A DNA stretch of 38,908 nucleotides. Source: an uncultured Thermoanaerobaculia bacterium. Its GTDB lineage: Bacteria; Acidobacteriota; Thermoanaerobaculia; Thermoanaerobaculales; Sulfomarinibacteraceae. The DNA lies in NCBI GenBank assembly GCA_964597585.1, contig CAZQYU010000004.1, forward strand, positions 1 to 38,908, given 5' to 3'. Below the pieces are notes generated by a model that was not told the origin of the DNA, ran no database searches, and saw only the letters and a list, made by a program, of their open reading frames with translations. Positions 394 to 2,336 of this stretch are shown one piece after another. A program made the position numbers and the translations under genes. The first letter of the stretch is position 1; every line of letters begins with the position of its first letter.

Positions 394-750
394 GTGCCAG
401 GAACAGATGATCTGCTGACCCGGATCGCCGAGGTTCTCAAGGCCATGGCCGACCCCACCCGGCTCAAGATCCTGCACAGTCTGCATTCCGGTGAGCGCTG
501 CGTGTCGGACATCCTGCACGTGGTCGGCGGAAGTCAGGCGAACGTCTCGAAGCATCTCTCGGTGCTCAAGCGCGCGGGTCTCGTCGACTGCCGCCGGGAT
601 GGCCTGAACGTGTTCTATCGCATCATCGACGAGGGCGTCTTCACCATCTGCCGCAATGTCTGCGACTCATTGGAGCAGCGCGTCGACCGCGAGCACCAGG
701 CGATCCTCGAAGGACGGCATCAGATCGAAGAAGTCGAGGTTCTCGGCTAG
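394..750 (+). CDS. ArsR/SmtB family transcriptional repressor
   Basis: KAMADPTRLKIL...SQANVSKHLSVLKRAGLV..RRDG..VFY winged-HTH signature; AAGGAGG RBS before the GTG; Cys in ERCV, DCRR and ICRNVC. Confidence 0.93.
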   Translation: MPGTDDLLTRIAEVLKAMADPTRLKILHSLHSGERCVSDILHVVGGSQANVSKHLSVLKRAGLVDCRRDGLNVFYRIIDEGVFTICRNVCDSLEQRVDREHQAILEGRHQIEEVEVLG

Positions 751-825
751 GCGACCGCCGACCCGCGTCGTGAAGCTCGCGGCAATTGCCTTGGAATCTC
801 CCGAGCCGAGTGAGGATGAATCACG

Positions 826-1035
826 ATGCCGATCTACGAGTATCGCTGTAACCAGTGCCAGCGCAAGTTTCAGAAGCTGCAGGGCGTCGGCGCCAGCTCC
901 GACGGCGTCCGCTGCCCGCATTGCGGTGCCTCCGAGGTTGTTCGTCAGCTCTCCACCTTCGCGAGTGCATCCACCGCGAGCGCAAGCTCCAGCGGCAGCC
1001 TGGGAGCCGGCTGTGGCAGCGGCGGTTTCACCTGA
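826..1035 (+). CDS. FmdB-family zinc-ribbon protein (extends to 1044 if TGA is read as Sec)
   Basis: MPIYEYRCNQC...CPHCG (two CxxC) and a Ser/Gly-rich tail ending GCGSGGFT; GAGGA RBS. Confidence 0.9.
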   Translation: MPIYEYRCNQCQRKFQKLQGVGASSDGVRCPHCGASEVVRQLSTFASASTASASSSGSLGAGCGSGGFT

Positions 1036-1071
1036 GGAGTCTGAGCACCGGGACCCGGGCGGTTCCCTCCT
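1035..1071 (+). other. Candidate bacterial SECIS-like stem-loop
   Basis: AGGAG(1035-39)/CTCCT(1067-71), GAGC(1043-46)/GTTC(1062-65), CCGG(1048-51)/CCGG(1055-58); apical loop GAC starts 16 nt after the TGA. Confidence 0.45.
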
Positions 1072-1187: not shown

Positions 1188-2336
1188 TCAGCCGGCGCGG
1201 AGGTCGCGGGATCCGGTCTTGTCGTCCTTGACGCGCAGGGCGCGGCGCCGCAGCAGGCTCTCGACCATGAGCCGGGTCTCGACCTCGGACCCGGGCATCT
1301 GGCGCACGATCTCCCGCACGGTGTAGGCACCGTTGATCCGCGACAGCAGAAATCCCTCCTCTGGACTGCACTCGAGGGAGAAGAGGGCGGCCGGAGGTAC
1401 GGCGAGCTCGAGTATAGAGTTGTCGTCGAGCTGCCGACGCTCGAGCTCTTGCAGAATCTTGTGCTCGATTCCCGTCGCCTGCTCGTTGGCCTCCCGCTGC
1501 TGCGCGTGCCGCTCGCGAATCTCTCGAAGCTGCTGCCAGGCTCGCAAGAGATTCCCGGCCGCGATCGCCCGCTCGGCCTCCTTCAGCAGTACCCGCCAGG
1601 CGCCTTGAGAAAACCCGGGGATGACGATCTCGGTCGTGGTCGGCGGCCTGAGCTCGAACAGGCCGGCCTCCGCACCGGAGAAGATGAAGTGCAGTGTGTG
1701 GAACATCGGCAGCCGACAGGCCAGCGAGATTTCCTCGATGCTGTTGCGGCCGTTGATCTCGCCGAGAATGCCGAGCTCGGTTGCGCCGATCTGCTGCACG
1801 TCCACGGCTCGAATCAGCTTCGGAATCCACTGCGGGTCGGGAATGCTATCCCGGATGCGGAGCCACTCGTCCTTGCGCCGGACACCCTCGAGAGTGAGCA
1901 TATCGATCGCCAAGCCGAGTGGTTGGAACTTCTTCGCGGGGAGAATGTTCTCCAGGAACCGGAAGTCACCCTCCTCCCAGAGAAACAGCTCGTAGATGGT
2001 CTCCTCGGTCTTGACCTGGAGAATCCGGGTCAGGTCCTCGCGCGAGATGCGCCCGATGATCACCAGCAGCTCACCGAGCAGGGTGCCGTGTCGGTCCTGC
2101 ATGTCGAGCAGCTCCTGGAGCTCCTCTTCACTGATGTAGTTCCACCCGACCAGGTAATATCCGAGGTACTCCTTCGGATTCTCCGACGACGAAGCGACGA
2201 CGAGCCCGTCCCGGAAGTACACCTTCTTGTTGTGCTCGGGGCCTTCGACGGCAAGCGTGCCTGTCTTGCGGCTCTGCGACACCCACTGCAGCAGGTCGGC
2301 GAAAGGCATCGTACGGAGGTTGCCGCTAATCGACAC
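1188..2336 (-). CDS. DUF4388 (PatA N-terminal-like) domain protein with a helical/TPR-like middle and wHTH-like C-terminus
   Basis: SISGNLRTMPFADLLQWVSQSRKTGTL...VYFRDG...LGYYLV...LGELL...LFLWEEGDFRF pattern; C-terminal EEGFLLSRING. Confidence 0.8.
   Translation of the reverse strand: MSISGNLRTMPFADLLQWVSQSRKTGTLAVEGPEHNKKVYFRDGLVVASSSENPKEYLGYYLVGWNYISEEELQELLDMQDRHGTLLGELLVIIGRISREDLTRILQVKTEETIYELFLWEEGDFRFLENILPAKKFQPLGLAIDMLTLEGVRRKDEWLRIRDSIPDPQWIPKLIRAVDVQQIGATELGILGEINGRNSIEEISLACRLPMFHTLHFIFSGAEAGLFELRPPTTTEIVIPGFSQGAWRVLLKEAERAIAAGNLLRAWQQLREIRERHAQQREANEQATGIEHKILQELERRQLDDNSILELAVPPAALFSLECSPEEGFLLSRINGAYTVREIVRQMPGSEVETRLMVESLLRRRALRVKDDKTGSRDLRAG

Follow-up and report, generated by a model that had tools for sequence, protein, structure and literature searches.

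A probable C-terminal selenocysteine in an FmdB-family zinc-ribbon protein of Acidobacteriota

Introduction

The 38,908-nucleotide stretch of DNA considered here (the window; contig CAZQYU010000004.1 of an uncultured Thermoanaerobaculia bacterium) carries a small gene, fmdB, whose open reading frame (ORF) ends with two closely spaced in-frame TGA triplets. The question is whether the first of them, at 1033–1035, terminates translation or is decoded as selenocysteine (Sec). An initial annotation had interpreted the locus as a candidate new selenoprotein of the FmdB zinc-ribbon type, with a hairpin resembling the bacterial type of selenocysteine insertion sequence (SECIS) behind the UGA. It had named four checks: the presence of the Sec machinery, the choice of stop codon among homologues, Cys at the aligned position, and covariation of the downstream hairpin. 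As judged from sequence comparison, it is very probable that UGA 1033–1035 is decoded as Sec in a 72-residue FmdB-family zinc-ribbon selenoprotein. All coordinates given below are positions of the window.

The fmdB reading frame and its in-frame UGA

On the plus strand, the ORF at 826–1035 comprises 69 codons up to the first TGA; a Shine–Dalgarno-like GAGGA, read from the sequence, lies at 812–816 (plus strand), 9 nucleotides (nt) before the ATG. The ORF ends with GGC TGT GGC AGC GGC GGT TTC ACC TGA GGA GTC TGA. Translation through TGA 1033–1035 gives ...GAGCGSGGFT-U-GV and then meets the stop TGA 1042–1044, which confirms the ORF end and the readthrough tail GCGSGGFT-U-GV as first described. 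The putative selenoprotein ORF extends over 826–1044 (plus strand) and encodes 72 residues: a zinc ribbon, a Ser/Ala/Gly-rich linker, and the tail C63-GSGGFT-U70-G-V. Its presumed Sec codon (1033–1035, plus strand) is separated by two sense codons from the presumed true stop (1042–1044, plus strand). The product of 826–1035 matches both the Pfam family PF09723 (Zn_ribbon_8; 57.5 bits, cut-off 34.4) and the NCBIfam model TIGR02605 (“FmdB family zinc ribbon protein”; 59.1 bits, cut-off 31.3), and the proposed FmdB identity holds.

Two sets of orthologous loci were compared. When 40 related genomes were searched in six frames, 40/40 proved to have an orthologue, and the 30 best loci were read (the order-level set). 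With 200 further Acidobacteriota genomes (the phylum set), a match at E ≤ 1e-9 was obtained in 45/201 genomes, the window’s genome being counted, and 28 new loci were fetched. Both sets together, minus L136 (a duplicate of L031) and L153, make up 56 distinct loci. Protein identities among the compared loci reach down to about 40%.

At the order level, tails of the form Cys-x(2-7)-GF[TS] (in a few cases GGG, PVT, APT, or GVT) are followed by TGA in 30/30 loci, with exactly two sense codons before the second stop in all 30 (GV, GA, GI, AS, AG, GS, RV, GF, KV). A TGA followed by one to three codons and a stop is present in 27/28 phylum-set loci, the sole exception being L153, whose tail is acidic and whose stop is TAG. 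TGA is the first stop in every one of the 56 distinct loci (56/56), whereas the second, one to three codons on, is TGA in 42, TAG in 9, and TAA in 5. The stop choice among homologues is thus far from random, and, as the second stop is mixed while the first is invariably TGA, the second, unlike the first, acts as an ordinary stop. Codon +1 after the TGA encodes Gly in 24 of the 56 loci (GGC, GGG, GGA) and Ala in 27 (GCG, GCC, GCT, GCA), and this use of synonymous codons indicates selection at the protein level; the second intervening residue is Val, Ile, Ser, or Ala. The UGA is conserved in frame among orthologues, with coding continuing beyond it, as in a SECIS-dependent selenoprotein gene.

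A reassigned genetic code does not account for this since TGA is a normal stop in the window’s genome, where long ORFs end with TGA in 72%, TAG in 24%, and TAA in 4% of cases. The same predominance of TGA would suit the alternative that TGA 1033–1035 is a true stop, that the hairpin described below is some other 3′ element (serving mRNA stability or attenuation, or as a protein-binding site), and that the second stop is a back-up. Such an arrangement appears improbable in view of the invariant first stop beside a mixed second one (42/9/5) and of the codons between the stops, which are conserved as amino acids through synonymous codons.

It might also be supposed that the double stop is a sequencing or assembly error or the mark of a decaying gene, given that the source is a fragmented metagenome-assembled genome (MAG) with 742 contigs and 90% completeness. 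However, contigs from two other salt-marsh DNA runs span 1003–1400, including TGA-GGA-GTC-TGA and the hairpin, with no listed difference there. The TGA/hairpin sequence is therefore not an assembly slip; moreover, the same arrangement recurs in the 56 distinct loci of other genomes. The probability of error or decay is practically negligible, this explanation being effectively refuted by the contigs of the other runs and by the orthologous loci.

The SECIS-like hairpin

The SECIS-like, G+C-rich hairpin (1050–1066, plus strand) lies wholly behind the stop at 1042–1044. Its stem pairs 1050–1055 (GGGACC) with 1061–1066 (GGTTCC), and its loop, CGGGC at 1056–1060, starts 20 nt after the UGA. When the 30 order-level loci were aligned from TGA-9 to +50, RNAalifold found one helix, 1050–1055/1061–1066, with compensatory changes in 6/6 pairs. 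Extended by one pair to seven, the helix is paired in 92% of cells, versus 41–55.5% with the partners slid by one to three columns. The covariation score of the seven-pair helix is 0.527 versus 0.188 in shuffles, and 0/500 shuffles attained it.

Over 57 loci, a simple hairpin finder gave a UGA-to-loop spacing with a median of 19 nt and a range of 10–38, the outliers L157, L159, and L161 being judged as cases in which the finder chose another hairpin. The loops, which have a G within the first two bases in 55/57 loci, include GGC (11), CGTGC (7), CGGGT (6), GGT (6), and GTT (4). According to the available portions of PMC10778597, the apical loop of a bacterial SECIS lies 16–37 nt from the UGA and has a G at its start; the spacing found here, 20 nt in the window and a median of 19 nt over the loci, fits this 16–37 nt rule. 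The distance between the hairpin and the first TGA is maintained across loci with one, two, or three intervening codons. Both this spacing and the G in the first two loop bases argue against a true stop followed by an unrelated 3′ element.

That hairpins are frequent in G+C-rich DNA speaks for the true stop, and a background was therefore counted with fixed criteria: a stem of at least five pairs, at least three of them G-C, and a loop of 3–6 bases with G in the first two, starting 13–27 nt after a TGA. Such a hairpin follows 54/56 Sec-site TGAs versus 302/2108 other TGA triplets (14.3%) of the same loci; with a stem of at least six pairs, the counts are 50/56 and 181/2108. A run of at least four T stands behind the hairpin in 4/56 loci only, another point against the true-stop alternative, and a scan of 150–1300 gave no terminator-like site; hence, the hairpin is not a terminator. 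At gathering thresholds, the only Rfam match in the window is a tRNA.

A different fold had been put forward in the initial annotation, namely a three-part stem directly behind the UGA with a loop at 16 nt, and the hairpin at 1050–1067 had been mentioned as the alternative. The three-part stem is drawable and is the minimum-energy fold of 1033–1075 (−15.2 kcal/mol, single sequence), but shuffles are just as stable, and it is not conserved: over 30 orthologues, 51.5% of its cells pair versus 50.3% in shuffles, and it was rejected. The downstream hairpin does covary, but the covarying helix is the former alternative, and its loop begins at 20 nt rather than at 16.

FmdB genes with other tails

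As a wider control, named genomes were scanned for an N-terminal octapeptide derived from a 13-sequence alignment, covering 5/64 parts of the collection, and 80 loci were kept. A locus was taken as Sec-type if a TGA was followed by one to three codons and a stop and if a Cys stood within the last 12 residues. The hairpin is present in 14/14 Sec-type loci versus 16/66 others, four of these 16 being judged Sec-type with extensions of 4–5 residues. One of the 14 Sec-type loci, L051, is the same place as L023. Their labels are Acidobacteriota/Acidobacteria, Thermoanaerobaculia, Thermodesulfobacteriota, Deltaproteobacteria, Desulfarculaceae, Nitrospiria, Chloroflexi/Chloroflexota, KSB1, and “Cytophagia”.

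The other 66 FmdB loci have Cys-rich or acidic tails and end with TGA in 36 cases, TAG in 19, and TAA in 11. FmdB genes with other tails thus use all three stops, and 50/66 of them lack the hairpin, which speaks against a true stop at 1033–1035. The FmdB paralogues of the window’s genome itself do not show the Sec-type arrangement: C415 ends with a Cys-rich tail and TAG, C141 with an acidic tail and likewise TAG, and in C60 the stop is TGA, but the frame continues open behind it for at least 15 codons.

Among 1.84 billion cluster representatives (50% identity), a profile search yielded 17,569 matches at E ≤ 0.001 and 2,409 at E ≤ 1e-10. Of the 150 best representatives, 73 have a C-terminal F[TSG], and many others resemble the TGA-type relative L029 in ending with C-x3-6-GGG or -GST. 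In 14/150, at least one of the final four residues is Cys, e.g., ...GAGFCAN; Cys-rich FmdB tails such as this one or ...CCGGGCGCH are not alignable with confidence to the Sec position. Among the 39 matches of a word search, no name goes further than “putative FmdB family regulatory protein” or “zinc ribbon domain-containing protein”, and 0/39 are named as selenoproteins.

Selenocysteine machinery

Three genes of the Sec machinery score above the curated cut-offs in the window’s genome: selA (468.3 bits), selB (312.2 bits, or 332.5 with a C-terminal piece), and selD (370.7 bits). The presence of the machinery, the first of the four checks, is therefore borne out for these genes but not for selC, which was not found in the organism’s own 90%-complete assembly (31 tRNA genes). 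The sole RF01852 match above the cut-off (48.7 bits) is a tRNA-Ser(tga) according to ARAGORN. Among relatives, 11/12 of those searched have a tRNA-Sec at 71–79 bits, a 98%-complete genome of the same genus included. Five selA-negative genomes gave only distant FmdB paralogues (23.8–24.9 bits) and no Sec-type or Cys-type orthologue.

The machinery also bears on the proposal that the UGA is read through without Sec (by near-cognate Trp or Cys decoding) or that recoding is inefficient, the 69-residue form being functional and the site being a selenium-dependent switch. A stop three codons before the end would cost little, the Sec assignment is indirect here, and, as the accessible part of PMC9595596 has it, truncated products are known for recombinant thioredoxin reductase. 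However, a covarying SelB-type hairpin at the canonical distance and the Sec machinery would have no role in near-cognate reading, and conservation of a small residue behind the UGA speaks for selection on the extension itself. It is thus very unlikely that readthrough without Sec or such a switch accounts for the locus.

Some observations on Sec-related genes stand apart from the question of the UGA. In L173:232-1413 (genome G004), an FmdB paralogue lies about 0.9 kb from a tRNA-Sec gene on the same strand; by coordinates, this arrangement also exists in G003, G005, G006, G008, G027, and G028. A protein judged by eye to be DUF4388-like is encoded between the two in L173, and the paralogue is of the GSGWYVTDY type without a Sec tail. 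The glutaredoxin-like ORF C9:352-555 (minus strand) of the window’s genome matches the UXX-star family 2 model with 59.9 bits (cut-off 100); it ends with ...DELGIE-TAG without a TGA and is an ordinary non-Sec relative.

Weighing of the evidence

Several observations weigh against Sec decoding. The tRNA-Sec gene (selC) was not found in the window’s 90%-complete assembly; the alpha subunit of formate dehydrogenase (TIGR01553) was not found in the genome at E ≤ 1e-10, and no bona fide selenoprotein was identified there for comparison. The search for Cys-aligned homologues was negative: F[TSG]-C-x1-3-end, with Cys at the Sec position, occurs in 0/150 best representatives, and a Cys-aligned homologue was seen neither among the 39 word-search matches nor among the translated tails of 138 loci, a result that favours the true-stop alternative. 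The fold of 1033–1075 is no stabler than shuffles (z = 0.05; 101/200 shuffles as good or better), and at this z the single-sequence fold carries weight neither way. The genomes compared are related, so that the locus counts overstate independence. Although selA was found in 45/45 phylum-sample genomes with an orthologue versus 163/201 overall (unpublished genomes included: G191 in the orthologue and selA tallies, G089 and G064 in the selA tally only, with no other result drawing on them), it is common in this sample (81%), and its co-occurrence therefore discriminates weakly. Sec decoding is deduced from sequence comparison. Contigs from two metatranscriptomes fell on the upstream ArsR gene only (394–787, about 94–98% identity) and are uninformative for fmdB expression. 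Finally, the view that the Cys...Sec pair forms a flexible redox-active or soft-metal-binding arm is a best guess.

On the whole, the tests of the Sec machinery, of stop choice, and of the hairpin turned out favourably, while that of Cys homologues did not, and the selenoprotein interpretation of the initial annotation is supported.

The protein and its proposed synthesis

The zinc ribbon contains two CxxC knuckles (residues 8–11 and 30–33), and C8, C11, C30, and C33 are invariant in the 30 orthologues. In the same proteins, the tail Cys is nearly invariant, with Sec trailing it by 4–7 residues. An AlphaFold2 model was built on the 30-sequence alignment with Cys in place of Sec. The ribbon is modelled confidently, the means of the predicted local distance difference test (pLDDT) over 10-residue blocks being 86, 88, 77, and 90 across residues 1–40. 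Tail residues 46–62 and 64–67 have a pLDDT below 50 and are predicted to be disordered, which would place Sec on a flexible arm. No solved relative was found, as a sequence search of the PDB brought up nothing but generic zinc fingers and RNA polymerase subunit P. At position 866, one other salt-marsh DNA run has T instead of A, which by codon reading changes Lys14 to Met; this difference looks like a strain variant.

By the standard mechanism of bacteria, the following course of synthesis may be envisaged. SelB, loaded with Sec-tRNA(Sec), would be held on the hairpin 1050–1066 as the ribosome reaches UGA 1033–1035. Sec would be inserted, Gly and Val would be added, and translation would end at 1042–1044; should recoding fail, the released protein would be just three residues shorter. 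With Sec as the third residue from the end, the SECIS would lie entirely within the 3′ untranslated region (UTR). The resulting protein would consist of the zinc ribbon (residues 1–45) and, attached to it, about 25 disordered tail residues with the conserved Cys-x4-7-Sec pair at their end. This arm might cycle between the thiol/selenol and selenenylsulfide states, or it might bind a soft metal or metalloid, handing the electrons or the ligand to a partner.

Relation to known selenoproteins

FmdB-family selenoproteins are not without precedent. In the part of their 2008 study that was available, Zhang and Gladyshev list as new the selenoprotein family “Putative regulatory protein, FmdB family” on the basis of 2 reads of the Global Ocean Sampling (GOS) collection, with a CxxU motif and 807 Cys homologues (PMC2398784). 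Two reviews, of 2022 and 2026, repeat in their accessible passages FmdB with U/CxxU, or with UxxU and two Sec, without an accession (PMC9312934, PMC13188914). The GOS proteins belong to the same family (COG2331/TIGR02605), and both forms are predictions of UGA read as Sec with a bacterial SECIS. As far as the CxxU description goes, however, Sec of the GOS form is located in a zinc knuckle, whereas all four knuckle positions are Cys in the protein considered here. Moreover, the putative Sec stands here in the C-terminal tail, 1–3 residues before the end, and no Cys-aligned homologue of it was found, in contrast to the GOS form as it is described. The word “new” in the initial annotation therefore calls for a reservation: FmdB selenoproteins as such were predicted in 2008, albeit with Sec in a CxxU knuckle.

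The NCBIfam X-star selenoproteins, tabulated in the accessible part of PMC13188914, include the “UXX-star” families (UXX-star 1 and 2, NF041114 and NF041211) and KCU-star (NF033934). They likewise have Sec a few residues from the C-terminus, and their SECIS must therefore lie behind the stop codon. NF041211 is glutaredoxin-like by its model name, and its match in the window’s genome is C9:352-555 and not the fmdB locus; in an hmmscan of the 72-residue protein at E ≤ 10, none of the X-star models, NF041211 and NF041114 included, was matched. NF041197 describes proteins that are likewise tiny, with two CxxC motifs and one Sec, but Sec stands between the knuckles in that family. The 72-residue protein reaches only 15.2 bits with this model (cut-off 40), and a search of the window’s genome gave no NF041197 match at the fmdB locus. 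The model is closer to gene B of the relatives (19.5–26.4 bits; see below) than to the FmdB-Sec protein.

Mammalian thioredoxin reductase has a C-terminal Gly-Cys-Sec-Gly arm. By functional analogy, FmdB-Sec would resemble this enzyme in bearing Cys and Sec as a pair on its flexible C-terminal tail and in having a SECIS outside the ORF: according to the available portions of PMC10778597, thioredoxin reductase has been made in E. coli with an fdhF-derived SECIS in the UTR, i.e., a SECIS outside the ORF works. The two differ in that FmdB-Sec lacks a flavoprotein domain and in that its Cys and Sec are 4–7 residues apart rather than adjacent.

Literature searches for FmdB or zinc-ribbon selenoproteins gave the GOS-type record only, with Haft and Tolstoy 2025 and Haft and Gwadz 2023 outside their scope. 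The words zinc, ribbon, and FmdB are absent from the deep-Sep and BSepDB papers, a paper search on the function of the FmdB family found nothing, and no NCBIfam model exists for the tail-Sec FmdB form. Sec-tailed FmdB belongs to the FmdB family and to SECIS-dependent genes and to no catalogued selenoprotein subfamily among those tested.

If the Sec assignment is correct, a large and widespread group of FmdB proteins is annotated about three residues short, without the residue likeliest to do the chemistry. Since no Cys-aligned homologue was found, this group probably escapes searches that require one. It would further be an instance, occurring naturally in bacteria, of a SECIS that acts from a place wholly inside the 3′ UTR, and it would enlarge the selenoproteomes of Acidobacteriota and several further phyla. 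The flexible Cys...Sec arm would offer a first mechanistic handle on the functionally unknown FmdB family, and, in some lineages, Cys...Sec FmdB would be encoded beside other tiny Sec-containing proteins.

Gene neighbourhood

Upstream of fmdB, at a distance of 75 nt, lies a gene for an ArsR/SmtB-family regulator (394–750, plus strand; PF01022 HTH_5, E 2.3e-15), which is probably its operon partner; a promoter-like site is found at 317–345. The ArsR protein matches the general metalloregulator model NF033788 of NCBIfam with 93.9 bits (cut-off 55) and stays below the cut-off on TsoR (58.9 of 115) and BigR (50.9 of 155). Conservation of the neighbours was followed by tblastn with the window’s own proteins. 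An ArsR orthologue is located upstream on the same strand in 29/30 order-level loci, the thirtieth ending at a contig edge. Among the 28 phylum-sample loci, it was seen only in L136 (the duplicate of L031) and in L143, where it is downstream of the gene. It may be supposed that an ArsR/SmtB-type sensor of this kind governs fmdB expression. The ArsR protein has Cys at residues 36, 66, 85, and 89, and the ...ICxxxCD pair (85, 89) is also present in L024, L028, L030, and L048; from its sequence, this pair might serve to sense metals or redox state.

Between the ArsR gene and fmdB, relatives have up to two further tiny genes with a conserved TGA, which are absent from the window. The first, gene A, encodes a single hydrophobic helix with ...LP[RK]LGV[PKS]T-TGA, followed by about 20–45 codons (A[VAI]PxPxG... 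or M[SA]x[AT]C[DG]...). It is present in 12/30 order-level loci (L041:1111-1299, L028, L033, L035, L038, L039, L042, L043, and L046–L049). A tblastn search beyond the order with one query (E ≤ 0.01) located it just upstream of fmdB in six phylum-sample loci (L138, L145, L147, L149, L150, L159) and upstream of fmdB in the named-sample loci L086, L108, and L061. In these phylum- and named-sample loci, the TGA comes after ...LG[VF]x-T, and a hairpin follows 22–23 nt on; most gene A loci have, 17–23 nt after the TGA, a hairpin whose first two loop bases include G. The membrane peptide is paired with Sec-type fmdB also in MAGs labelled KSB1 and Cytophagia, and no locus of the phylum and named samples has gene A beside a clearly non-Sec-tailed FmdB. 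Gene A, which has no NCBIfam match, is a candidate membrane micro-selenoprotein gene.

Gene B (about 64 codons) encodes CxxC-x8-PVP[TA]-TGA-[GS]x[LI]LWRCxxCG...FPxGIP and was found in 15/30 order-level loci (L041:1299-1496, L024, L026, L028, L030, L033, L035, L038, L039, L042, L043, L045, and L047–L049), with PVPA in L028 and SLILWRC in L045. Its hairpin, GCTCTGGC-ggt-GCC[AG]G[AG]GC, occurs in 13/15 loci, and the loop, 16 nt after the TGA, is situated inside the ORF; L045 has a close variant of the hairpin, and in L030 the finder chose another one. Gene B comes nearest to the family NF041197 (“dual CXXC motif small (seleno)protein”), with 19.5–26.4 bits, below the cut-off of 40. A tblastn search of the window’s genome gave no convincing copy of gene A or gene B.

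It is a tentative and rather doubtful suggestion that FmdB-Sec belongs to a hitherto overlooked module of tiny selenoproteins, of which the window’s organism keeps only the last member. Such a module would begin with the gene of an ArsR-type sensor, followed by abutting genes for the membrane peptide, the CxxC-Sec-CxxC protein, and FmdB-Sec. The three proteins might then form a selenol/thiol relay, or a chain handling soft metals, metalloids, or chalcogens, from the membrane to the cytosol.

Downstream of fmdB and convergent with it lies a DUF4388 gene (1188–2336, minus strand; PF14332, E 6.4e-30), which is regarded as a neighbour and not as part of the system; it is kept downstream in 11/30 order-level loci. 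The sole match of Rfam and ARAGORN in the 38.9-kb window is a tRNA-Leu(CAA) gene at 79–164 on the minus strand.

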